Shown here piece by piece: positions 236-63,414 of a DNA stretch of 64,000 nt. The notes below the pieces were generated by a model, which had not been told where the DNA came from, did no database searches, and worked only from the letters and a program-made list of their open reading frames with translations. The position numbers were made by a program, and so were the translations under genes. Position 1 is the first letter of the stretch. Every line of letters begins with the position of its first letter. Source of the stretch: a virus. The stretch lies in IMG/VR virus record IMGVR_UViG_3300045988_109352. The stretch is one strand, 5' to 3'.

Positions 236-365
236 ATCATTTAGTTTTTAGTTCTTCACTCAACAACAAAGTATCTATTTTGGAATAAAGTCCTTTGTCT
301 TTAAATTTACGTATTCTTTTAAAAAGATTACCAGTCAGACAGAATCGGTATGACTTACCTACAAT

Positions 366-373
366 ATTTGGTA
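366..373. repeat. 8-bp direct repeat ATTTGGTA, copy 1, flanking the mini element
   Basis: Identical octamer at 587-594. The two copies bracket 374-586 exactly. Confidence 0.85.
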
Positions 374-509
374 GGCGCTTATATTCAAGTTTACACTTGA
401 ACAACTTGACGTTTCATCGAGCCACTACTTCTTAGGGAGCTTGCGCCCCGGTCGTCCATAGTTGGGTTCTCACCGTCCAATCCCCGATGCGCCATCGGTT
501 GGGTTAATA
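374..509 (-). ncRNA. putative solo omegaRNA (reRNA) scaffold, no adjacent tnpB
   Basis: Near-identical copy of the tnpB-1 3' end. Minus-sense hairpins CCGATG-GCG-CATCGG, GGGGC-GCAA-GCTCC and CAAGT-GTAA-ACTTG. Co-oriented with the surrounding operon. Confidence 0.35.
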
Positions 510-586
510 CTATTTTTTAGGTGTAGCTTGGTTATCGCTACATTAGCATTTATAAAAAGCTAAGTGCCTCTTTGTATATAAGTGCC
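374..586 (-). mobile_element. miniature protein-less derivative of the TnpB-only element family (ends plus omegaRNA-like segment)
   Basis: 374-509 matches 1883-2018 (tnpB-1 3' end plus right end) with 5 mismatches in 136 nt. 510-586 resembles the left ends of the elements at 30616 and 3195. Termini GGCGCTTATATTCAA...CACTT and GGCACTTATATACAA...CACTT are inverted repeats (18/25). Flanked by an 8-bp direct repeat. Confidence 0.75.
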
Positions 587-594
587 ATTTGGTA
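587..594. repeat. 8-bp direct repeat ATTTGGTA, copy 2
   Basis: Identical to 366-373. Confidence 0.85.
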
Positions 595-781
595 TTTCTT
601 CACGTTTAACCCGATTATCTTCACACATTGAGGCAAGCATATCGACCTGCTGTCTGGTGGCTACACAAGTACCCGACTTGTTTTTATTTATGGTAGTAAC
701 TACAAATTCTTCCAATCCTACTTCCTTTGCAGCCGGGAGAAGTCTTTTTAGATACTTCCTACACATCTTTTGTAGCATAGG

Positions 782-983: not shown

Positions 984-1532
984 TCAATAGTCTAATTTAG
1001 GCATTAGAAGGGCTTCGGATAGAGATAACTCTTTGTCGTAAAATGTAATCTTAATTCCTTTGCTATCATCTTTAGGGAAATGAAATCTTATGCCTCTCCT
1101 TGCATTCAAAGCATCGGCTATCAATTCAATGTTAAGTGGGTCAATAAGTACCTTTTCCGCAAATCCCGGTCTGAATTGACTTATAACTTTGTTATAATTG
1201 GGATATTTACTATCTATATTCGCGAACTTATACTTTATATCCCAATCGTCATATATAGCGTGGAAACCATCTTCTTCAATCTCAATGATAGTATGCTTGA
1301 TGATTTCCTTAAAGTTTTTTGCACTAATTAGTTTACCTTCCAGTAATTCCTTCTCTTCTTCGCTAAAGTTGCAAATCTCATTTAGGCAGGCTTTGATTAA
1401 TATCTTGCCGTTGCTGGCTATTGCATATCCATCTTTGAAATATATGCAATTCATTACTGGTCTAATAGGGTCATTTGCACAAGCTAAATGCAGCTTAATC
1501 CCTTTGTTGAAATTGTGTCTAATCTTCTTCAT
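984..1532 (-). CDS. sliding-clamp (DNA pol III beta)-like protein, short form
   Basis: DPIRPVMNCIYFKDGYAIASNGKILI resembles the clamp RP.L.GV...L..vATDGhRL. KYPNYNKVI resembles clamp FPDY..VIP. The C-terminal LLMPKL resembles clamp vvMPmRL. Only 182 aa. Confidence 0.4.
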   Translation of the reverse strand: MKKIRHNFNKGIKLHLACANDPIRPVMNCIYFKDGYAIASNGKILIKACLNEICNFSEEEKELLEGKLISAKNFKEIIKHTIIEIEEDGFHAIYDDWDIKYKFANIDSKYPNYNKVISQFRPGFAEKVLIDPLNIELIADALNARRGIRFHFPKDDSKGIKITFYDKELSLSEALLMPKLDY

Positions 1533-1858
1533 ATCATTTGGTCTTTTAGTATTATAGCATCCACTTTGGAGTAGACACCCTTGTCTTTGAATTTACGTAT
1601 TCTTTTAAAAATCTTTTGTTCGTTGCACTTCCGGTATGACAGACAAAGCAAGTTGGGAATTTCCTCCCTTTTTATTCTATCATCCCCACATAGAGAAGCC
1701 AGCATATTGACTTGTTCTACCGTGGCTGTGCATCGTCCATTTTCGTTTTCGGTAATAGTCCTTTCGACAAATTCATCAAGACCGATATCTCTCGCTTTCC
1801 GGTACAACTTTTTCAGATACTTTCTGCAAAGCTGCTGTAGTTTGTTATGGCAACTCAT
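1529..1858 (-). CDS. hypothetical protein (intact paralog of the split gene 237..778)
   Basis: ATG at 1858 (MSCHNKLQQLCRKYLKK...) aligns with the start of the paralog. The longer ORF reaching 1897 would begin inside the TnpB-1 right end. Confidence 0.6.
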   Translation of the reverse strand: MSCHNKLQQLCRKYLKKLYRKARDIGLDEFVERTITENENGRCTATVEQVNMLASLCGDDRIKREEIPNLLCLSYRKCNEQKIFKRIRKFKDKGVYSKVDAIILKDQMI

Positions 1859-1882
1859 AATAGTTTCTTTATAATATCTCCA

Positions 1883-2018
1883 GGCGTTTATATCCAAGCT
1901 TACACTTGAACAACTTGACGTTTCATCGAGCCGCTACTTCTTAGGGAGCTTGCGCCCCGGTCGTCCATAGTTGGGTTCTCACCGTCCAATCCCCGATACG
2001 CCATCGGTTGGGTTAATA
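1883..2018 (-). ncRNA. putative omegaRNA (reRNA) scaffold overlapping the tnpB-1 3' end
   Basis: Position expected from the known TnpB architecture. GC-rich hairpins in an AT-rich genome. The sequence is conserved in the protein-less copy at 374-509. Confidence 0.4.
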
Positions 2019-3120
2019 AATTCTGTGCTTGTAGTCCGAAGCGTTTGATGTTTCGGGCTGCAAGTAAATCTCTGTCATTTGTAGTTCCACACTTGGGACA
2101 AGTCCACTTGCGGTCGGAAAGTTTAAGCTCTCTATTTATATATCCGCACTCACACATCTTTGAAGACGGTTCAAAGCGACCTATGCGAATTAAAGTCTTT
2201 CCGTACCATTCACACTTGTATTCAAGCATGGAGAAGAAAGTAGCCCAACCAACAGAACCTATTGAACGTGCAAGCTTGTGATTTTTCATCATGCCGTCAA
2301 TGTTCAAGTCCTCTATGATTATCGCTTGGTTTTCGCGAACGAGCTTTGTACTTACTTTGTGTAAGAAGTCTGTCCGTTGGTTGGTTACTTTCTCGTATTG
2401 TCTTGCTAACTGCTTTCTAAGTCTTTCATGTCTGTTTCCTCCCTTCTTGGATTTACTGAAACGCTTTTGGATTATCTTCAATCGGTCAGTAGCTTTTTCA
2501 AGATATTTAGGGTTTTGAAATACGTCCCCATTTGAACATACTGCAAAGTCCTTTATTCCCACATCTATGCCGATTGTACCCTCATAAGTTATCGGTTCTT
2601 TAGATGGAAGTTCTTTCCCATCCTCTACCAATACACTGACATAGTATTTATCTGTCTTGGTTTTAGATACCGTGACAGACCTTACATCTCCTTCAAACTT
2701 TCTATTCTCAGATAGCTTCACCCATCCGATTTTAGGAAGTTTAATCCGGTTGTTATCCAAGTCTACTTCTACTGAGTTGATAGCCTTATATGCTGCTCTA
2801 CTTTTGTGTTTGGACTTGAATTTAGGAAAGCCTTTCTTCTCACGGAAGAATCTTGTAAACGCGCTGTCCAAGTTCCGGATAGACTGCTGCAAACACTCAT
2901 TGCTCACTTCTTTCAGCCACTCCATGCCTTTCTCCTTCTTCAAGTCGGTAAGCATCTTGCATAGGTCAACCGCATTTATTCGCTTTCCTTCGTTCTGATA
3001 GGCTTCTATTCGCTTTGCCAAAGCCCAATTATAGATAAAGCGTACACTTCCAAAGGACTTCTCAAAGAATATCCTCTGCTCCTTAGTAGGCTTCAATCTA
3101 TATTTATAGGCTTTCAACAT
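1900..3120 (-). CDS. tnpB: RNA-guided endonuclease TnpB (IS605 OrfB type)
   Basis: MLKAYKYRLKPTKEQ N-terminus. RuvC motifs IGIDVG, IIIEDLN and NDRDLLAARNI. Zn ribbon CECG...CPKCG. Confidence 0.9.
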   Translation of the reverse strand: MLKAYKYRLKPTKEQRIFFEKSFGSVRFIYNWALAKRIEAYQNEGKRINAVDLCKMLTDLKKEKGMEWLKEVSNECLQQSIRNLDSAFTRFFREKKGFPKFKSKHKSRAAYKAINSVEVDLDNNRIKLPKIGWVKLSENRKFEGDVRSVTVSKTKTDKYYVSVLVEDGKELPSKEPITYEGTIGIDVGIKDFAVCSNGDVFQNPKYLEKATDRLKIIQKRFSKSKKGGNRHERLRKQLARQYEKVTNQRTDFLHKVSTKLVRENQAIIIEDLNIDGMMKNHKLARSIGSVGWATFFSMLEYKCEWYGKTLIRIGRFEPSSKMCECGYINRELKLSDRKWTCPKCGTTNDRDLLAARNIKRFGLQAQNLLTQPMAYRGLDGENPTMDDRGASSLRSSGSMKRQVVQV

Positions 3121-3632: not shown

Positions 3633-3838
3633 TTCTTAACTTCAACTTTGATTGTATCGGCTTTAACCGTATCTTTCTTAGTAGTCTTAATCCTAAACCT
3701 AATATCACCTACATTAGTATCATGGTATCTTGGATGAGGATGAAGTTTTGGGTCTACTACTATCGGCATCTTTCTCTTCGTAGTGCCAGACGGAATACTA
3801 TCGTTCTTCGTCTTCACATTCACTTTTATCTTCACCAT
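3629..3838 (-). CDS. hypothetical protein
   Basis: Packed minus-strand train; basic. Confidence 0.4.
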   Translation of the reverse strand: MVKIKVNVKTKNDSIPSGTTKRKMPIVVDPKLHPHPRYHDTNVGDIRFRIKTTKKDTVKADTIKVEVKK

Positions 3839-11090: not shown

Positions 11091-11101
11091 ATTATTTTAG
11101 T

Positions 11102-11230
11102 TTAATTGGTTGTATAAACTCCTTCTTCACAATTTTCTATACGTGATTGACATTCAGATATTACTTCCTTTAAAATGTCTGCACATTCTTCATTTGAGTA
11201 ATCTTGTAGCAATTCATCAATATACTGCAT
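11102..11230 (-). CDS. small hypothetical protein (42 aa)
   Basis: Hand-translated MQYIDELLQDYSNEECADILKEV...; fills a gap in the minus train. Confidence 0.3.
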   Translation of the reverse strand: MQYIDELLQDYSNEECADILKEVISECQSRIENCEEGVYTTN

Positions 11231-11234
11231 TATA

Positions 11235-21654: not shown

Positions 21655-22470
21655 TTATAGGTTATTATATTCTTTGTATTTAGAAATTGAATTGAACGTA
21701 GCTTGTACGCGGCTACTAATATACTGATAAAAATTAGCATTCGTAAAGTCAATGCCGATAAACAATTTGTTGTTGTTTCTATTGGCTTCCTGCATGAGTT
21801 CCTTTATTTCCGCTTTGTGACACTGGGTGAGAACAAAACTTGTACGGTATTTAGTCCAATTCAAAAAGAACAGTTCTTCATCTGTAGAATTTTCATTCAG
21901 CATAGGTATTACTTTTCGTAGTATTCTACAAAAACAAGCGAACTCAGCACTTTCTACTACTTTTCTGTTTCGCGTTCTTGCACTTGCTCTACTTGCTTGC
22001 TTCTTACTTTCTTCGTCAATTCGATAATTGCTATTAGCTGTGCCGGATAATATGCCGCGTGCCTTGTTTGCTGCTAACGCATCTTTTGTACGTTTGCTAA
22101 TTAGTTCGCGTTCGTATTGTGCAACGGATGCAAAGATACCTAATACCATAGTATTTACTACTGGAAGGTCACAAAAATATATATCTATGCCCGTATTTAC
22201 TACATGAAAAACAAACTCAGCATCTCTTGAAAGCCTATCCAATTTAGCCACTACAAGGGTGCAACTATTAGCTTTGCAATACTCTATAGCTTTCCACAAC
22301 TCCACACGGGAACAGTCTTTTCCCGAAGCCACATCTACAAACTTACCACAAATAATTCCACCTTTGCTATTAATATAGTCTATACAAGTCTTTTCTTGGG
22401 CTGACAACCCTAAACCGCTATCACCTTGTTTATTCGTTGATACACGAAGGTAGTAAACATATTTATCCAT
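21655..22470 (-). CDS. small serine recombinase (resolvase/invertase family)
   Basis: YLRVSTNKQ catalytic Ser region, VVAKLDRLSRD and QYERELISKRTKDAL. The C-terminal ~110 aa have no HTH I can recognise. Confidence 0.8.
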   Translation of the reverse strand: MDKYVYYLRVSTNKQGDSGLGLSAQEKTCIDYINSKGGIICGKFVDVASGKDCSRVELWKAIEYCKANSCTLVVAKLDRLSRDAEFVFHVVNTGIDIYFCDLPVVNTMVLGIFASVAQYERELISKRTKDALAANKARGILSGTANSNYRIDEESKKQASRASARTRNRKVVESAEFACFCRILRKVIPMLNENSTDEELFFLNWTKYRTSFVLTQCHKAEIKELMQEANRNNNKLFIGIDFTNANFYQYISSRVQATFNSISKYKEYNNL

Positions 22471-29193: not shown

Positions 29194-29257
29194 AAGTTTA
29201 CATTTTAGAGAAATTTTTCCTATATTTGCATTGAGATAATATTAAAATCGTTAACAA

Positions 29258-29746
29258 ATGACATATTTATATCTGTTATCTTTATTAACACTTGTTGCAT
29301 ACATTGGTTATGCTTTGAAGGTATGCGAACTGCCTGCATCGCTTTCAGATACCTACTACATTTTGAAGGAGAAGAGCCGTCCTTCTTGGCTGTTTCAGCT
29401 TGCTATGGTTGTCTGTCCTATGCTTCTTGTTCCCGTATGGCTTGAATTGTCTTCTGACAGTGTTCAGTTTCTTTCTTTCTTGGCTTGTGGCGGTCTGATG
29501 TTTGTCGGTACAGCGCCTTTGTTCAAGGAGGAGTTTCAGAGGAAGGTTCACTTCGGTGGGACTATAGTAGCTGGATTGGGCACTACCTTGTGGCTGTTGT
29601 TCTCTGGTATGTGGTATATCCCTTCCGCTTTCTTCTTTGTGTCGGGCATTGTCATGCTGTTCAAGAAAAAGTGGCTGTTCTGGCTGGAAATGGCGTTGTT
29701 TGCGAGTGCTTATACTGGATTGTTAGTTAAAATGATGTTTGGATGA
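29258..29746 (+). CDS. multi-pass membrane protein
   Basis: Five or so hydrophobic spans. Confidence 0.6.
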   Translation: MTYLYLLSLLTLVAYIGYALKVCELPASLSDTYYILKEKSRPSWLFQLAMVVCPMLLVPVWLELSSDSVQFLSFLACGGLMFVGTAPLFKEEFQRKVHFGGTIVAGLGTTLWLLFSGMWYIPSAFFFVSGIVMLFKKKWLFWLEMALFASAYTGLLVKMMFG

Positions 29747-30018
29747 TGGAAAGAAAACTGTTTGATGGATGGGGTCTGTTTATAACCAAAGACTTGTCCT
29801 ATGTAGGCTTTTTCACGGATGATAGAGTTTGCTTGATAGATATAGAGGCTGATGGAATACAAATCATTGAGAAATCCGATTTCAAGGAGGACTATTTACT
29901 TTCCCCTACCGAGGAGGATATGGTTAAGTTCCGTGCTACTTTAGAAAAAGCTGGAAGTGGGTTTAGAGATAAGATTTTGGAAATAATGAAAAAAAATAGT
30001 TATGAATTTGAGTTTTAA
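29743..30018 (+). CDS. hypothetical protein
   Basis: Overlapping start and stop. Confidence 0.5.
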   Translation: MMERKLFDGWGLFITKDLSYVGFFTDDRVCLIDIEADGIQIIEKSDFKEDYLLSPTEEDMVKFRATLEKAGSGFRDKILEIMKKNSYEFEF

Positions 30019-30248: not shown

Positions 30249-30614
30249 ATGGAGTTATATTTAGAACCTATTTACCGTGACCGGAATTGCAAGGGGCAGT
30301 TCAACAAGGGTCACAGATTGAGATTTGGAGGGCGACCTTGTTCCGAGGAAACTAAGAAGAAGCTGTCGGAGATTATGAAAAAGAGGATAGCTGACGGTTC
30401 TACCAAGATGCCTCATTTTCAGAAGGCTGTAATAGTCATTAAGGACGGTCGGATTGTGGGTCACTACCCTTCCGCTACGGAGATGGCTCGCAGGCTGGGA
30501 ATTACCAAGTCGATTATTATCCGTGTTTGCTTGGGTATTCGGAAAAGCTATCGTGGATGCAATCTTTTTTACGAGTGTGATTCAGATAAATGGATGAAAC
30601 TAATTAAAGAATGA
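30249..30614 (+). CDS. homing-endonuclease-type DNA-binding protein without a nuclease domain (NUMOD3 plus NUMOD1-like HTH)
   Basis: GHRLRFGGRPCSEETKKKLSE (NUMOD3-like) and SATEMARRLGITKSIIIRVCLG (NUMOD1/IENR1-like). No GIY-YIG or HNH motif. Confidence 0.5.
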   Translation: MELYLEPIYRDRNCKGQFNKGHRLRFGGRPCSEETKKKLSEIMKKRIADGSTKMPHFQKAVIVIKDGRIVGHYPSATEMARRLGITKSIIIRVCLGIRKSYRGCNLFYECDSDKWMKLIKE

Positions 30615-30615
30615 G
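30608..30615. repeat. 8-bp direct repeat AGAATGAG, copy 1, flanking T2
   Basis: Identical octamer at 31937-31944. Confidence 0.85.
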
Positions 30616-31936
30616 GGTAACTATATAGCACTTTGCACTAAAAATTATATAAATAAATAGGAAATTTAAAATATTCTATTTATATTTGCGACATGTATTT
30701 AACGGAGCAACATATAATAACAGTTAATGACAAGAGGTACAAGGATTTAGACCGGATTTGTTTCTTATCCAAGAACTTGTATAATGCGGCTTTATATATC
30801 ATAAAGCAGGAGTTTCTTGTTTCCGGGAAATGGATAAGGTCTACAGAACTTAACAAAAAGATGGTTGCAGAAAACAACGTTGATTTTAGGGCTATGAGTG
30901 GTTCTTCTTCCCAGCAAATTTTAATGGCTTTGGATAAGAATTTGAAATCCTATTTTTCTGCCATTAAAGCATGGAAAAGGGATAACAAGAAATTTACTGG
31001 ATGCCCTAAATTCCCGAAATACAAGCATAAAACAAAAGGAAGAAATATATTTACTTATTCTTATGTACAATTTAAACATAGAGGGGAGTACATTTATTTC
31101 CCGAAGAAAGAAGGTCTGCAACCGTTGAAAACAAGATGCAAGGAAGGAACAGTTAAGCAAATAAGGTTTGTACCGAAAGCAGATTGTTATGTAATAGAAC
31201 TGGTATATGAATCAGAAGTAAAGGAAAAGCTACCGGATAACAATAAGTATATGTCTATTGATTTGGGAGTTAACAACCTTGCTTCTATTGTAACTAATAC
31301 GAGTAACAAGGCTGTTTTGGTAGACGGAAAGAAATTGAAGTCCATCAACCAGTATTACAATAAGAAAAAGGCTAAAGTTCAATCACAATTAAAGAAAACA
31401 AATGGAAAGGAAAATTCGAGACGGTTAATGAACCTTACAAGAAAAAGAAACAATAAGGTCAAGGATTATTTGCATAAGGCAAGCAAGGAAATTGTAAGCA
31501 TGTGTTTGAAAGACAATATAACTACATTGATAGTAGGACATAATGACGGATGGAAACAGGAAGTGGATATGGGTAAAAGAAACAATCAGAACTTTGTTTC
31601 AATTCCGTTTGAAACGTTCATATCAATGTTAAGGTACAAATCTGAAAGACAAGGACTAAGATTTGTTGAAATAAACGAATCTCACACGTCAAAATGCAGT
31701 TCTTTAGATTTAGAAGAAGTAAAACATCATGATAGTTATATTGGAAAGAGAGTAAAAAGAGGTCTTTTCAGAACAAAGAACGGGATTTTACTCAATGCAG
31801 ATATAAACGGAGCCTACAACATCATGAGAAAAGTAAAGGGGGATGCAGCAATGCCACCCTATAGAGGGTTTGGGTATAACCCAGTTAAGAAATTTATTAA
31901 CAAATAGATACAAGTGTAAACTTGTATATAATTACC
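30616..31936 (+). mobile_element. TnpB-only element T2 with imperfect terminal inverted repeats and an 8-bp flanking duplication
   Basis: GGTAACTATATAGCACTTTGCACT (30616-39) against the reverse complement of 31913-36, GGTAATTATATACAAGTTTACACT, matches 19/24. Deleting it restores a compact stop/start junction. Confidence 0.8.
30693..31907 (+). CDS. tnpB: TnpB-family RNA-guided endonuclease, variant subtype
   Basis: IDLGVNN (RuvC-I), YLHKASKEIV, INESHTSK and NADINGAYNIMRKV (RuvC-III). The canonical IxEDLN position reads LIVGHNDG, and there are no CxxC Zn-ribbon pairs. Confidence 0.8.
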   Translation: MYLTEQHIITVNDKRYKDLDRICFLSKNLYNAALYIIKQEFLVSGKWIRSTELNKKMVAENNVDFRAMSGSSSQQILMALDKNLKSYFSAIKAWKRDNKKFTGCPKFPKYKHKTKGRNIFTYSYVQFKHRGEYIYFPKKEGLQPLKTRCKEGTVKQIRFVPKADCYVIELVYESEVKEKLPDNNKYMSIDLGVNNLASIVTNTSNKAVLVDGKKLKSINQYYNKKKAKVQSQLKKTNGKENSRRLMNLTRKRNNKVKDYLHKASKEIVSMCLKDNITTLIVGHNDGWKQEVDMGKRNNQNFVSIPFETFISMLRYKSERQGLRFVEINESHTSKCSSLDLEEVKHHDSYIGKRVKRGLFRTKNGILLNADINGAYNIMRKVKGDAAMPPYRGFGYNPVKKFINK

Positions 31937-31944
31937 AGAATGAG
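31937..31944. repeat. 8-bp direct repeat AGAATGAG, copy 2
   Basis: Identical to 30608-30615. Confidence 0.85.
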
Positions 31945-44321: not shown

Positions 44322-44347
44322 ATCAATTTGTTATGTGCAAAAGTGAA

Positions 44348-45553
44348 CTACCCACGAACTAAAGATTCGTGGGCTTCCGACTTCACAGAGGAATGCCCTT
44401 TCAAAAGATTAGGTCTTCTATCCTCTCCATCGGTGTAATCGGCAGTCCCTGCCGATATATTATTTAATCCTAATTTTAGGATATTGATAGCAGCATTTAC
44501 ATCTCTATTATGATGTGTACCGCAAGATGGGCAACCCCATTCTCTTACTTTCAAGTCTTTTATTTCGCTATTACGATAGCCACAAACATTACAAAGCTGA
44601 GAGGATGGAAAAAACCTATCAATCTTAACTACATTTCTACCATTCCAATTAGCCTTATATGTTAGCATAGTGACGAATGTCCCCCAACTTGCATCAGTAA
44701 TTGATTTAGCAAGTTTATGGTTTCGTACCATACCTTTTACATTAAGGTCTTCAATACAAATGGTATCGTAGTTAGAGATTAGAGAATGAGAACACTTATG
44801 CAAGTAGTCCATACGGCAAGCAGAAATCTTCTCGTGAAGTTTGGCGACTTTGAGCCTTTGGTTTTCGTACTCATTACTGCCTTTCTTTTTTCTTGAGAGG
44901 TGTTTCTGTGCTACTGCAAGTTTCTTCTCATATCTCTTTGTGTATCTATTATTCTTGAATACTTCACCATCAGATGTTATCAGTAGGTCTTTCAAACCTA
45001 AATCTACACCAACTGCTTTATTAGCAGGTGCAAGTTCTTGATACTCCTCTATTGTGAATACTGATACAAAATACTTTCCTGTTGGAGTTTTAGTTAGACT
45101 AACTTTGCCCATCTTACCTTTGATTTCTCTATGCAGACGGATAGTTATACCACTCTTGAATTTAGGTAGCCACAACTTACTATCTTCAATAGTTGCAAAT
45201 TGGGGTACGGTAAATGTATTCTTACCTTTCTTTGAGTGATAGTTAGGGAACTTCGCTCTCTTTTGGAAGAAATTAGTGTATGCAGTTTCAAGATTACGCA
45301 AAGCAAATTGAAGTGTTTGAGAGTTTACTTCTTTAAGCCAAGCGGTTTCTTCTTTTTTCTTTAATTCAGTTAAAGCCTTTGCCTGAGCATAGTAGTTATC
45401 ACTCTCTCCTTCCTCTTTATATTGCTCTTGCCTTTGATTAAGGAAATAGTTATAGACAAAGCGAGTACAGCCGAAGTGCTTCGCCAACAATTCCATTTGG
45501 GAAGCATTTGGATATATCCTAAATCTGTATGTTCTATTTATCGTCTTAATCAT
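44348..45553 (-). CDS. tnpB: RNA-guided endonuclease TnpB
   Basis: ATG at 45553 ([16 protein letters not shown]...). Motifs [22 protein letters not shown]...CPSCG and [10 protein letters not shown]. Confidence 0.9.
44351..44373. repeat. subterminal hairpin, right end of the IS
   Basis: CCCACGAA-CTAAAGA-TTCGTGGG. Same loop and stem ends as the hairpin at 46047. Confidence 0.75.
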
Positions 45554-45595
45554 AGTGCAAATATACATATAAGTATTTACAAAAACAAGAAATGT

Positions 45596-45627
45596 TTTGT
45601 AAAAGTGAAATATTTTCGTTAATTTTG
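45596..45627 (+). promoter_or_regulatory. Bacteroidota-type promoter for tnpA
   Basis: TTTG (45596-99), 20 nt, then TAATTTTG (45620-27). ATG at 45632. Confidence 0.55.
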
Positions 45628-45631
45628 TAGT

Positions 45632-46036
45632 ATGAGGAGTGATTATGAGCATAGTAACCGACACAAATATTACTTGAAGTGTCATTTGATATTCTGTATT
45701 AAGTACAGAAAGAAGTTGCTCGTAGGCAAATTCAATGATACTATCAAATGTATTTTAAAGGGTATCGCAGAAAAGTCTGATTTTGATATTGAAATAATGG
45801 AGTCAGACAAAGACCACATCCATTTTCTCATCAACTATCCACCGAACATATCAGTAACATCTATTGTTAGAAAACTCAAGCAAGAGAGTACGATATTCGC
45901 TTGGAAACTATTTGAGAGTAAGTTGAGAAAAGAGTTTTGGGTTGAACGCACATTATGGAGTGATGGATATTTCTGTTGCTCAATAGGAGAAGCAAGTCCA
46001 GAAACAATTAGGAAATATATTGAACAACAAGGTTAG
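45632..46036 (+). CDS. tnpA: IS200/IS605-family Y1 (HUH) transposase TnpA
   Basis: [10 protein letters not shown] (HUH), [14 protein letters not shown] and [26 protein letters not shown] (catalytic Tyr region). Confidence 0.9.
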
Positions 46037-46046
46037 TGCCTTACAT

Positions 46047-46069
46047 CCCATAGGCTAAAGACCTATGGG
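46047..46069. repeat. subterminal hairpin, left end of the IS
   Basis: CCCATAGG-CTAAAGA-CCTATGGG. Confidence 0.75.
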
Positions 46070-46271
46070 TTTTCGGCACTTAAATATAAATGGATATAGT
46101 CAATGGGTAAGTAACTGTTTTAAAGATTATTATGTAATACAATACGAACGTTTAATACCCGTATTATGGCGAGGTATTCAGCAAGTAGATAATGAGGTAG
46201 CTACCCTCAAAAAGAAGATAGCTACCTTAGAAAAAGAACTTAGTTCTGTAAAGAGGCAACTAAGCCTTTAA
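46065..46271 (+). pseudogene. orphan C-terminal fragment resembling a tail-fiber intramolecular chaperone (peptidase S74) tail
   Basis: YYVIQYERLIPVLWRGIQQVDNEVATLKKKIATLEKEL resembles S74 domain ends (..Y..LIPLLI.AIQEL plus a coiled coil). The annotated start lies in the IS hairpin. No upstream part is present. Confidence 0.4.
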
Positions 46272-49200: not shown

Positions 49201-52200
49201 AAGACCATTACTTTCGGTATATAATTTACCATTGATTCTATGTAACATATTTATTTGCGCATCTCTCCATAATAAAATAACAACCCATTGGAAATCCGAT
49301 TTATAACCTAAATATGTTATTTTAGATGGATTCAAATTTCCTGCGTGCCATATTTTATACCAAGTTCTGAAAGAACTTGCACCAACACCTCTAAAGTAAA
49401 AATCATCAGAATTATAGGCTGCTCTTAATTGGAATAACCTATTTGCCGCAGAACCAATGTTTAATACAGTATCATTAGCACCAGTAGTTCCATATGCAGT
49501 ACCATTTGCCTCCCATACAGATGTCTTAGATGCTGTAAATGTAGATACAGTATCTATCGCAGTAGAGGTTATTTGAGCATATCTCTCTAAATGGTTGGCG
49601 GTAGTAGCAATATTGCCTTTAGTTAATGTCAGTACTCGCGTACTATTGTCATAAGTAGCGTTGGTAAGGACATTTCCCGTTCCAGTAATAGTAGTGGAAG
49701 GGTAGTTTGGGAGCGTAATATACTTGCTTGTGTCTGGCGCATAAGTTTGGCTGTTAACTTTGATACCAGCAATGCCAGTACCTCCACCACCATTCTTTTC
49801 AAGTTCAGTAATTCTACTTGCCAACTTGTTGATAGTGTATGCATTGAAAGTATCTGATAATGTTGAATCAGCGAATGTGCCACCTAAACTTGAATATCCA
49901 TAAACGGTTTGGATAAGCCCACCGCCTCCTCCACCTCCACTACCAGAACTGATACCTTTTGCAGATACAGCACCGCTTGCGTAGAAGTTAACAGCCGAGC
50001 CATCTTCTTTGTAGACTTTAATAGCATTATTGGCACTATCCACTCCAATGCGATACCCAGTTGTTCCTATTTCGATGTAGTCGGAAACTGTCAATTTCTG
50101 CATTGGATATTGTGGTATCATGTAGCTAATAGTCTTCGGAGTTCCAGAACGATATACAATCTGGAATAGAGAAACATAGTCGCCAAGCTGATTTTCTTTG
50201 ATGATGAATGATTGTGGGTCAGCATGGAAAACACCATCAGTCCCCCACCATACAGCACCACTTGCAAGGTAGCCAGAGCCATCCATACGAATGATAGCCT
50301 TTGCTACATCTGATGGCATGTTTGCTTCTGTATAATCTGCTCTATCCTTCATAGAACCTCCATACCAAGAAGCAATACCTCCACCGACCTTAGTAGCATC
50401 ATAGACACCATTCATACCGGACATTACTTTAAATCCAGCTACCGGGTCAGTATATCCCAGCATGTTTAACGCATTCTGAATAACGCCACCTTCGATTGTG
50501 GTACTCTCTTTCCACGCTTTCTTTAGATATTCATAACCAGCCAAATCTTTTTTAACGGTATCTACTGCTGCCTTAGCTGCGTCACTGATGGCATTCAAAG
50601 CTGCCGTTCTTTGATTGTAGTATGCAGATTGCTTTGAAGCGAAGTCAGAAGGTATAGTTATATTTTCGGGAGTAGAAGCAGATAATGTAACCAACACTGC
50701 ACGATAATTGCTATGAGCATTCAGATAACCCGTAGGGCTACCCAATGAATACAAAGTATATCCTGCTGTAATATTTGTCTTGTCAGCGTCTATACGAACT
50801 ATTTCATCTTTGATTGATTGCTTTTCAGTAGGAGATATAACCCCATCTTCTGCCCACTTATCCAATCTTTGTTTAGCTGCTTCCGCTTCTGCTTTAGCTG
50901 CATCTGCCGCCTTTTGAGCCTCTTCCGCAGCTTTCTTCGCATCTTCTGCGGAAGTGTTTATTTTGTCTTGGATAAAGTTGTTGGCTGCATTCAAATAAGC
51001 TATAAAATCTCCATATTTGGTATTGAAGGTGTCGTACCTACCATCTACCAAAGCGACTTCCGTTGAGGTAGCTACTCCGTCAGCTATGGCATCATCAATA
51101 GCAGTAATAAGCTCGGTAGTTGCCACATTAAATCCATCATAAGCGGTTTTTAGTTCTACCTTAGCAGTACCGGACAATAAAGGATTAGCATAAACCTTAG
51201 AATAAGATTCCGCTACGCTCTTCTGTATTGATTTGATTGAGTTCAAATATTTCTCAATTGCGGCAGCTTCTTGTCTGTCAACAATACCGTCTTTAAAGGC
51301 TTCGTCTGTGAAGTCTTTCATATTGGTTACAGTCTGCTTTGCGTCATTGGCTTCTTTCTTAGCTTCTTCTGCTGCCTTTTGCGCTTTAGCTGCTTCAAGA
51401 TAAGCCTTTGAAGTGTCATTGTCTGCAATCTGCGTCCATCCCCATGTATCTCCCGTCTTTACCCATCTCCATGATTTTCCTGCATCGGGAGTAGTTTCAT
51501 CATCGACATATTCTTGGATATTGGTAAATACATCACCTTCATGCCGTTTTTTCAAAGCTTCTGTGTTCCAATCAACTGCTGGCTGATTAGTAAGAGTTGG
51601 TGTATATTCTCCGTACCAAGTTTCCTTTACTCCATCTATCTGGTCTTGAAAGCTGTTGAATGTTTCCTCAACGTCTTTGCCGGATTTAGTTACAAGTTTA
51701 CCTTTTATCTCAACACCAGTTACCGTATCAAACTTCATATAGCTGCTCTTATCTCTTGCTCCGATATAAGAGTTGCCATAGACGTTCATATAAGCGAGAT
51801 TTGTGGTCTTATCAACACCATAGGACACATACTCTTTGTTGAGGTATGAATAGCTGTTTATGCCAGCATATAAAGTCATACTTGGCGAGAAAGTGTCAAC
51901 TGCACTAAAGATAATTGCATTCTGTCTTGTCTTGTCCTCTACATGAGTAACACCATTTGCATCAACAAAGGTCTTATTACCTAATTGGCAAATGGTATCT
52001 CCTACTCGTGGTGCATCACTGGCTGCATCAGCATCAGTTTTTGAGATGTCAATGTAATTAGTTCCTACGTTTACGACTAAACGCCAGAAGTAATGATTTG
52101 ACACATTCTCATAAACTCCCTCCTTAATATTGAAGTCTTGTGCTAAAGCCATATCCCCAGCGCGGAAACGATTATCTAACGCTTCTGTACCATCATCTTG

Positions 52201-58865: not shown

Positions 58866-59037
58866 AATGGTTCTTTATTTTTCTACAAAAATACGCAATC
58901 TAAGCTTCGATATATGCCACTTATCGAAAAACAAGCTACATACCTTAAAATAAATATGCTACTTTTTCGATAACCACAGTATGAGTAATGAAAAAGCTAT
59001 TTATTTTTGTTCAAAATAATAAAATCATTGACGAACA

Positions 59038-59682
59038 ATGGCACAAAAAAAAGAAGTTTTATCTAAAGTTAATCAGATTTGCGAAGAACGTAATTTTGAT
59101 TTGAGTGAAACATTCAGAGATAAGTTCTCTGAGAAATTTGCAGAAGCTTACAAGGATGCTCCGATTGAAGATGCTGGCTTAGTAGCCGCATTGAATATTT
59201 CAGTTGAAAGTAGCGGACATGCAAGAAAGAACGCATTCTCAGAAGCGACTAAGGGATTTGAAGCTAAGGAAGCTGAATATAAATCTCAGATTGAAGAATG
59301 GAAGAAAAAGGCTGAAAAAGGTAATGATGATGAAGAAGGCAATCAAGAGCCTCCGAAATTTGAGTTGCCTGCCGAGTACAAAGAGAAACTTGATAGGCTG
59401 GAAAAGTTTGAATTGCAAGAGAAAACGAAGTCTGTTCGCAATCAGATATACGATACAGCCAAGTCTAAGGTGAGGGAAGATTTACATGAATCTTTTCGTA
59501 ACTATCTTGGTAAGCAGAATATCGCAATTGATGCTGATGTTAATGCCGAGGCAGAAAGACTGCTGAAAGATTATCAAGATATATTCAGAAGCTCTATTGG
59601 TGATATTACACCATTATCTCCCGACGGAAAGAAAACAACGATGGAAGATTACCTTGCTGCCATAAAACCCGTCAAACTTTAA
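59038..59682 (+). CDS. scaffolding-like protein
   Basis: Charged, helical, E/K-rich. Upstream of the capsid genes. Confidence 0.45.
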   Translation: MAQKKEVLSKVNQICEERNFDLSETFRDKFSEKFAEAYKDAPIEDAGLVAALNISVESSGHARKNAFSEATKGFEAKEAEYKSQIEEWKKKAEKGNDDEEGNQEPPKFELPAEYKEKLDRLEKFELQEKTKSVRNQIYDTAKSKVREDLHESFRNYLGKQNIAIDADVNAEAERLLKDYQDIFRSSIGDITPLSPDGKKTTMEDYLAAIKPVKL

Positions 59683-62986: not shown

Positions 62987-63414
62987 GCGTGATTGATGCA
63001 AGGCGAATGCCGATATACCAATATGTTTATTCTCTCTTCATAGATAAGGTTACAAAGTACATCTATCCGATGGAAATGCCTACCAAGTTGGAGGAGGAGA
63101 TAAATGCTGGCGGTTTCATGGTTATCCGTCTGGGAGAAATTAAGGATAAGAGCCAGTTCAACTTGAATGCTCTTGCGAGCGTTCGCGTGACAGTTGAGAT
63201 GTATATTCCTCCCAAGACAAGAGGTCGGCTTGATACCACCTTGCTGGAAAAGTATGAAACAAGTATATCCGACATTGTAAATGCAGAAGTTGAGAAAGCC
63301 GGAGAAAAATACGACATCTCAACTGACGGTATATTGTCAACTGATGATATATATAATGAGAGCGACAATCTGTTCTTCATGTATATTAAATCATTTATAA
63401 TCAACATAAAATAA
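62983..63414 (+). CDS. tail-completion candidate
   Basis: Position only. Confidence 0.3.
   Translation: MSVIDARRMPIYQYVYSLFIDKVTKYIYPMEMPTKLEEEINAGGFMVIRLGEIKDKSQFNLNALASVRVTVEMYIPPKTRGRLDTTLLEKYETSISDIVNAEVEKAGEKYDISTDGILSTDDIYNESDNLFFMYIKSFIINIK

Follow-up and report, generated by a model that had tools for sequence, protein, structure and literature searches.

A protein-less miniature element with IS1595-family ends carries the 3′ end of a tnpB gene, a predicted omegaRNA module, in a phage genome

A protein-less insertion splits a phage gene

The IMG/VR virus record IMGVR_UViG_3300045988_109352 was analysed as one strand of 64,000 nt, here called the window, and positions refer to it unless another sequence is named. 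In its first 800 nt, a gene on the minus strand is interrupted by a 213-bp element that encodes no protein (the mini-element, or mini). We find that this element, at 374-586, is a miniature inverted-repeat transposable element (MITE) with the ends of an IS1595-family DDE transposon, and that its only cargo is a 136-nt module copied from the 3′ end of tnpB-1, a gene for a TnpB nuclease. The features of the locus are the following.

374..586, minus strand: mini-element, 213 bp, no protein gene, a clean insertion relative to Bacteroides phage C3_41T2LP; read on the minus strand, the left end (586 to 510) comes first and then the right end (509 to 374)
587..594, minus strand: left-end copy of the target-site duplication, TACCAAAT, an exact 8-bp repeat of which the empty allele has one copy
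366..373, minus strand: right-end copy of the target-site duplication, TACCAAAT, whose 8 nt open the predicted guide
595..778, minus strand: N-terminal part of the interrupted phage gene, from comparison of open reading frames (ORFs)
237..365, minus strand: C-terminal part of the interrupted phage gene, from the same comparison
1529..1858, minus strand: intact paralog of the interrupted gene, within the ORF 1529..1897

A first-pass annotation of this DNA had proposed that the gene is split relative to its paralog by an insert between 8-bp direct repeats, and both points hold: the gene is now divided into the ORFs 560..778 and 237..404, and the repeat ATTTGGTA is exact at 366-373 and 587-594. 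Excision of 374-586 with one repeat copy restores the frame, as had been predicted, and the product, the 32-mer AACGTGAAGAAATACCAAATATTGTAGGTAAG, is found with 0 mismatches in the intact 106-aa gene of C3_41T2LP. This phage (OR296439.1, host B. uniformis) is the closest cultured relative, with 97% identity over the region, and its orthologous gene carries a single TACCAAAT, providing the uninterrupted allele that the annotation had suggested looking for. Since the ortholog is uninterrupted, the 213 bp are an insertion and not an ancestral segment of the gene. Pfam and PHROG searches gave no match for the interrupted gene or its paralog.

The ends are those of an IS1595-family transposon

570..586, minus strand: left terminal inverted repeat, GGCACTTATATACAAAG, with similarity extending to ~27 nt
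374..390, plus strand: right terminal inverted repeat, GGCGCTTATATTCAAGT, read inward, overlapping the last hairpin of the RNA module
30616-31936, plus strand: tnpB-2, a second TnpB-only element, with inverted repeats GGTAACTATATAGCAC / GGTAATTATATACAAG and an exact 8-bp duplication, AGAATGAG (30608-31944)

On the minus strand the mini-element begins with GGCACTTATATACAAAG and ends with CTTGAATATAAGCGCC. The 17-nt terminal repeats are identical at 13 of 17 positions, with 4 differences, and their likeness runs on to ~27 nt. A DDE transposase is recognised by inverted repeats combined with a duplication of fixed length, here 8 bp; terminal inverted repeats and target duplications are both absent from IS200/IS605 elements. 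IS607 elements are likewise described as being without both (PMC6188088). The mini-element therefore belongs to neither group, and the IS200/IS605 framework of the first-pass annotation is contradicted by its inverted repeats, by the 8-bp duplications and by ends that match an IS1595-family DDE transposon. What that annotation said of the element as a non-autonomous, protein-less derivative keeping transposon ends and the tnpB-1 3′-end RNA module stands. Its likening of 510-586 to the upstream ends of the TnpB elements is right for the terminal 17-27 nt, where the inverted repeat GGCACTTATATACAAAG lies, and wrong for the inner ~50 nt, which are unrelated to the tnpB-1 leader.

Listing the ORFs that adjoin solitary terminal repeats in related contigs yielded a 306-aa protein that matches DDE_Tnp_IS1595 (5e-43), the NCBIfam IS1595 transposase model NF033547 (7.5e-59) and Zn_ribbon_IS1595. 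The transposon of this protein circulates among these Bacteroides phages and starts with GGCACTTATATACAAAGTGACACTT (loci L027/L028/L052/L161), and its left terminus is identical to that of the window mini over 17 nt and to that of the GTGACACTT mini variants over 25 nt. Only one copy is complete (L161 3811-6925, 3115 bp); it has the far inverted repeat GGCAGTTATATACC, the 8-bp duplication AAAAGTTT and passenger ORFs, with no tnpB. The right terminus was not found in L028/L052, where the copies are recombinant. The passengers of the complete copy span ~2 kb and comprise two opposite-strand ORFs (127 and 164 aa) and a third ORF, of 134 aa, whose N-terminus resembles that of a lipoprotein. A search of the first 64 loci for a transposase inside terminal-repeat pairs ≤3.5 kb apart with matching duplications found only minis and tnpB-2.

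IS1595-family insertion sequences and their MITEs were reportedly treated by Siguier in 2009. The mini-element shares with such MITEs its matching termini, an 8-bp AT-rich duplication, small size, lack of a transposase, multiple copies and polymorphic sites; IS1595-family elements duplicate 8 bp of AT-rich target (PMC12561309). Judged from these sequences, the mini family appears to depend for its mobility on a cut-and-paste transposase of the IS1595 type and not on the usual partner of TnpB. An IS1595 transposase is encoded neither in the window nor in the complete C3_41T2LP genome, so mobilisation must be in trans.

The tnpB-2 element has the same IS1595-type architecture around a TnpB that is 25% identical to TnpB-1, and C3_41T2LP has the exact empty site, matching over 40 nt without a mismatch. 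Another phage lineage (L173 ~3770-3810, L168) has a TnpB-type RNA module (...ACGTATATAATTACC) whose right end is separated by 10 bp from the left end of a 62%-identical IS1595 transposase element, and with this arrangement the association of IS1595 with TnpB recurs outside the family studied here.

A serine recombinase of the window (21655-22470) was considered as the mover and rejected, as it shows no IS607 architecture and serine recombinases make no 8-bp duplications. It is a 271-aa protein with an N-terminal resolvase domain and a YLRVSTNKQ motif, is called 'integrase' in the C3_41T2LP annotation, and no link between it and the mini or TnpB elements was found. Staggered TnpB cleavage was also rejected as the source of the duplication, since known TnpB enzymes cut 15-21 bp from their transposon-associated motif (TAM), not at 0 and 8.

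The RNA module and its conserved fold

1900..3120, minus strand: tnpB-1, 406 aa, with the Pfam domains HTH_OrfB_IS605, OrfB_IS605 and Cas12f1-like_TNB
1883..2018, minus strand: right end of tnpB-1, source copy of the RNA module, with the stop codon in the terminal-hairpin loop
3142..3173, minus strand: Bacteroides-type promoter upstream of tnpB-1, TTTG-N20-TATCTTTG
374..509, minus strand: tnpB-1 3′-end/right-end copy in the mini, the predicted omegaRNA scaffold, 96% identical to 1883-2018
484..498, minus strand: hairpin 1, CCGATGgcgCATCGG; alignment A3 columns 8-22, 2 pairs with compensatory double changes
436..449, minus strand: hairpin 2, GGGGCgcaaGCTCC, with a GNRA loop; A3 columns 57-70, double changes in 4 of 5 pairs
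382..403, minus strand: terminal hairpin, TGTTCAAGTgtaaACTTGAATA; A3 columns 103-124, 4 pairs with double changes, 92.8% of cells paired

By its sequence TnpB-1 is a full-length TnpB: it scores 442 bits against NCBIfam IS200_TnpB (cutoff 425), and RuvC D/E/D motifs and a zinc finger are seen by eye. The reported 136-nt match between the mini and the end of tnpB-1 was confirmed and reaches 137 nt (373-509 against 1882-2018), with 5 mismatches at 378, 385, 390, 424 and 489. In tnpB-1 the stop codon TAA lies within the GTAA loop of the terminal hairpin (1900-1905; mini counterpart 391-396), and the last 39 codons, past the conserved TnpB domain model (residues 3-362), overlap the entire RNA module. 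The mini keeps a 34-codon ORF from this region, which is probably meaningless.

The three hairpins that had been noticed in the earlier annotation are present and supported by covariation. Five helices were tested on an alignment of 17 right ends, drawn from TnpB families that share 66-100% identity with TnpB-1: standard pairs make up 97.5% of cells, and 10 pairs show changes on both sides. The observed values were reached by none of 500 shuffles, and pairing fell to 28-47% when the partners were slid. The loop of hairpin 2 is GCAA, GAAA or GAGA in relatives, so that GNRA is kept, and the terminal hairpin directly precedes the element end and the guide. In hairpin 1, the C/T difference at 489 gives G-C in the mini and G.U in tnpB-1, a pair change that had been described correctly.

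Within the TnpB-1 family (68 distinct minis and 5 full copies), almost all variable stem positions exchange G-C for G.U or A-U for G.U, and on the tnpB-sense strand only. In hairpin 1 both partners of the A-U to C-G exchange mostly change together, and none of these copies has C.A at the variable pair 106/121. The compensatory changes also alter the residual peptide (MAHRG / MAYRG / LAQRG). Since the changes are wobble-compatible on the sense strand and alter the peptide, the constraint appears to act on the tnpB-sense RNA, not on a protein or on DNA hairpins. Minis that differ in their left ends, whether of the 213/220-bp or the AGTAAAAAT/TAAC type or reduced to solo right ends, all keep the module from ...TTAACCC to the end.

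Rfam gave no relevant match, either for the whole window at the gathering threshold or for 300-2100 at E≤5, which only shows that the scaffold is uncatalogued and lowers nothing about the mechanism. A scan for tRNA and tmRNA found none.

Minis are numerous and polymorphic in related phages

The 30-nt core of the right part has 22 matches in IMG/VR viral contigs, and the terminal-repeat pattern has 50. We counted at least 68 distinct mini copies in related phages against 5 full tnpB-1 copies, a ratio of ~14:1. The minis range from 145 to 220 bp, and up to 4 are found per ~10 kb at related phage loci. Clean 8-bp duplications occur at 11 distinct sites, including that of the window, and for most of them exact or near-exact empty alleles are present in the window or in C3_41T2LP (e.g. 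29972-30003, 59005-59039 and 63379-63410 of the window). The sites are polymorphic across the window, C3_41T2LP and the IMG/VR contigs, filled in some phages and empty in others. A chance origin is excluded by the BLAST match of the right part (E=1e-61) and by the 11 independent sites with 8-bp duplications. At 59005-59039 related phages have a hot spot, with two independent insertions 3 bp apart (duplications TAATAAAA / TAAAATCA); the window carries the empty sequence for both, with 0 mismatches.

The complete C3_41T2LP genome has four minis (OR296439.1, L184/L185):

11100-11234: mini
~29211-29430: mini, the best mini-element match; the deposited annotation has no feature under it
64476-64694: mini
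70162-70363: mini

One C3_41T2LP mini occupies a position for which the window has the empty allele, immediately upstream of the gene that carries the insertion in the window. The genome encodes no TnpB-1 ortholog, no Y1 TnpA and no IS1595 transposase, and its only TnpB is a 44%-identical relative of TnpB-2 (CDS 49924-51102, annotated as 'endonuclease (Transposase)'). A TnpB-1 resident in cis is thus not required for the minis to persist. Those of C3_41T2LP can be relics, sites that are occupied and hence immune, or elements dependent on the nuclease of a co-infecting phage.

We also observed recombination between copies, in that one left flank pairs with different right flanks and vice versa (L004, L013, L019; L145-L154). 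At L047 780-2240 a full tnpB-1 element joins the C3_41T2LP mini site to the window mini site, and the N-terminal two thirds of the gene interrupted in the window are deleted. L047 shows that some full-length tnpB-1 elements retain the left repeat intact; compared with that left end, the tnpB-1 element of the window is cut short and has lost its terminal repeat. Among 185k species genomes the best TnpB-1 relatives are only 48-58% identical (Methanosarcinales and Prevotellaceae metagenome-assembled genomes) and no host copy was found, suggesting that the TnpB-1 lineage is phage-specific. At one Prevotellaceae locus (L107) a TnpB lies between inverted repeats that are flanked by an 8-bp duplication.

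Candidate TAM, predicted guide and orientation

354..373, minus strand: predicted guide TACCAAATATTGTAGGTAAG, made of the duplication copy and its flank, placed by the TnpB/omegaRNA rule (PMC10055086)
595..597, minus strand: AAA, candidate TAM of the empty allele, directly 5′ of the duplication

The predicted guide of tnpB-1 itself is TGGAGATA.... In the 11 reconstructed empty sites, the triplet that directly precedes the duplication at the left-end side reads AAA in 10 cases and TAA in the remaining one (P=2.6e-14, with a background AAA frequency of 3.5%). The first duplicated base is T at 9 of these sites and C at 2, and nothing mirrors AAA at the opposite edge of the duplication. A TnpB family 68% identical to TnpB-1 has a like pattern, GTTAAA/TATTAAAT. 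At the left flanks of transposase-bearing IS1595 copies, AAA was found in 0/5 cases for the transposon of identical terminus and in 2/7 for a 62%-identical relative (Fisher P=0.0014, 0.0006). The AAA pattern, as read from these sequences, fits a TAM with a guide that targets the empty allele, since it is the pattern expected if the guide consists of the duplication and the flank beyond the right end.

The co-orientation of the mini with its surrounding genes, noted before for the window, holds there and at all 11 sites (two-sided P ~0.001). No Bacteroides-type promoter motif was found in the mini, while tnpB-1 has one. A sigma-70 promoter and terminator scan gave hits at chance level, with a model not suited to Bacteroides.

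A proposed mechanism and its alternatives

Taken together, these observations suggest that the mini-element, a MITE with IS1595-type ends, carries an RNA module that acts as a trans omegaRNA for TnpB-1 against empty alleles; we put the probability of this whole explanation at roughly 0.6. Read-through of the operon would extend transcription across the module and into the flanking DNA beyond the right end. TnpB-1, encoded 1.5 kb away or supplied by a co-infecting phage, would trim this transcript and bind it as an omegaRNA with the guide TACCAAATATTGTAGG...; processing and binding of its RNA by TnpB have been described (PMC10278001, PMC10055086). The occupied allele would be immune to the ribonucleoprotein because only 8 nt match the guide before the left end begins. 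The empty allele of a co-infecting relative, AAA-TACCAAATATTGTAGG, would be cuttable, and repair by phage RecT and exonuclease could then copy the element in, resulting in homing, or the competitor would be excluded. RecT is encoded in the window, and RecT and a YqaJ exonuclease are encoded in C3_41T2LP. The TAM would lie 8 bp upstream of the left end instead of abutting it because the transposon duplicates 8 bp, and new sites would be created by the IS1595 transposase acting in trans. By analogy with known TnpB systems we infer that the mini functions in trans with TnpB-1. One nuclease with several guides, as the first-pass annotation had proposed, is plausible and extends to the related phages, with their many minis for few full copies.

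Several points weigh against this explanation. Every functional step in it rests on analogy. The minis are young (≥90% identical), with few independent substitutions, and have been redistributed by recombination between copies; a few carry A.G or C.U mismatches in hairpin 1. The RNA of the mini would be incomplete if the scaffold needs sequence upstream of 509. In C3_41T2LP the minis persist without a TnpB-1 nuclease in cis, and in the window the flanks of tnpB-1 are recombinant, so that its own TAM is unreadable. The transposase-bearing comparison set for AAA is small, at 12 flanks, and a preference of the transposase could show only at the intergenic, co-oriented sites where minis survive.

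A wider form of the explanation, which we hold tentatively and at less than even odds, is that the minis form a distributed RNA-guided gene drive. One TnpB would be served by many guide-only MITEs scattered by the IS1595 transposase, each guide targeting the empty allele of co-infecting relatives behind an AAA TAM 8 bp from the element. In such a drive only insertions behind a TAM and in sense orientation would be driven to high frequency, and this would explain both the motif and the orientation bias. If true, it would be a natural dispersed array of one nuclease and many guides in phage-phage competition, bridging solitary TnpB and CRISPR-type multi-guide systems.

AAA could instead reflect a target preference of the IS1595 transposase, or be a by-product of insertion in A-rich intergenic sense strands, without serving as a TAM; the MITE and its RNA module may stand even so. 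IS1595-family elements do prefer AT-rich targets (PMC12561309), the sites are mostly intergenic and A-rich, and 2 of the 7 type-II transposase copies also have AAA. However, the target preferences of DDE transposases are normally symmetric about the duplication and here the motif is unmirrored, no left flank of the transposon with the identical terminus has it, and it stands exactly at the TAM position for a guide that starts from the right-end boundary. We consider this account of AAA less likely than not.

Slightly less probable again, though still to be reckoned with, is an IS1595-type MITE that kept the tnpB-1 3′ end by an accident of deletion and has no present function, spreading or decaying as junk that broke a dispensable, duplicated gene. 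C3_41T2LP keeps its four copies without TnpB-1, the mini has no promoter of its own, and the copies are so alike that youth could preserve the structure. Part-deleted derivatives also occur, including solo right ends (L002/L009/L020) and a deletion of hairpin 1 (L014). Transposase binding, however, normally needs the terminal tens of bp only, yet elements with differing left-end types all keep the module. The stem polymorphisms are wobble-compatible in a strand-specific way, with C.A missing at 106/121, and neither the orientation-specific AAA nor the 11/11 co-orientation is predicted for a neutral DDE MITE.

Movement of the mini as an IS200/IS605-derived palindrome-associated transposable element (PATE), by single-strand peel-and-paste with a Y1 TnpA, is very improbable. 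The window does encode such a transposase beside a third tnpB, in a canonical IS605:

44327-46085: IS605
45632-46036, plus strand: Y1 tnpA, divergent from tnpB-3
44372-45535, minus strand: tnpB-3

TnpB-1 also scores as an IS200_TnpB, and PATEs bearing omegaRNAs are known (PMC10055086). Against this origin stand exact 8-bp duplications at 11 sites, the terminal inverted repeats and the identity of the ends with those of the IS1595 transposon. No 4-5-nt motif is shared at the left end, where the abutting bases are AAAT, ATGA, CAAA, TTAT and so on. The left-end hairpin of the mini, GTAGCgataaccaaGCTAC, is unlike its right-end hairpins; the true IS605 of the window has a matching pair (CCCATAGGtctttagCCTATGGG and CCCACGAAtctttagTTCGTGGG). 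C3_41T2LP lacks this IS605 and has another gene and a mini-element in its place. The tnpB-3 of the IS605 is a further tnpB beside the two TnpB-only elements named in the first-pass annotation. An 11-nt remnant resembling an IS1595-type terminus (46075-46085, GGCACTTAAAT, plus strand) abuts the left end of the IS605, which may have inserted beside, or replaced, an older inverted-repeat element.

That the 213 bp are native to the gene family or intron-like and were lost from the paralog has the colinearity of the two genes in its favour and nothing more, and is already refuted by the C3_41T2LP ortholog without the segment and with its single TACCAAAT, by the recurrence of a 213-220 bp segment at unrelated sites and by the lack of a group I/II intron or any other Rfam match, so that we give it practically no credence.

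Significance and comparison with known systems

TnpB biology has been worked out for IS200/IS605 elements, where scarless excision places the TAM directly against the element. In the minis the RNA-guided logic seems adapted to a target-duplicating transposon, with the candidate TAM shifted by the duplication length, and the guide module has been split from the nuclease and amplified ~14-fold. The family thus offers a compact new predicted omegaRNA scaffold and a candidate TAM that is very short and A-rich. The copies are also portable homology, recombination hot spots that reshuffle phage genomes. With the cultured pair C3_41T2LP / B. uniformis and the natural filled and empty alleles, trans guides and homing between viruses are directly testable.

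Protein-less IS200/IS605 derivatives whose omegaRNAs are acted on in trans have already been described as PATEs (Meers et al. 2023, PMC10055086). The mini resembles PATEs in having no protein and in keeping the ends and a predicted omegaRNA; as in PATEs, its RNA is predicted to be usable only in trans, by a TnpB elsewhere, with the guide just outside the right end. PATEs have subterminal hairpins without inverted repeats or a duplication, a TAM that abuts the left end and Y1 TnpA as the mover. The mini differs in its inverted repeats, its 8-bp duplication, its likely DDE mover, a candidate TAM 8 bp off and its residence on a virulent-type phage replicon.

DDE-associated and solo TnpBs bounded by inverted repeats have been catalogued (Altae-Tran et al. 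2023, PMC10691335). They share with the elements studied here the inverted terminal repeats and a TnpB 3′ end near the transposon end, and their solo copies are likewise presumed to be mobilised in trans. Of the six DDE branches in that study one is identified as IS630, and protein-less derivatives with only an omegaRNA are not among the elements described; here the transposase belongs to the IS1595 family, and there are ~14 guide-only copies for each nuclease copy. A full-text literature search found no paper linking IS1595 and TnpB functionally. IS1595-family insertion sequences and MITEs such as ISApl4 (PMC12561309) have repeats starting with GG, 8-bp AT-rich duplications and passenger-gene variants in common with the family of the mini. 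For known members, unlike the mini with its predicted guide RNA, no RNA-guided nuclease or guide RNA and no orientation-specific target motif are reported.

The predicted biology of the mini is also shared with phage homing endonuclease genes (HNH, GIY-YIG), which cut the allele without the element, spread by recombinational repair and disrupt the site upon insertion, so that the occupied allele is immune. Unlike in these genes, recognition by the mini would be RNA-guided and modular, so that a single protein would serve many sites, and the spreading element need not encode the nuclease. Compared with all of these systems, what is new here is the partnership with IS1595, the form of a guide-only MITE, the ~14-fold excess over the nuclease gene, the residence in phages and a candidate TAM displaced by the length of the duplication.

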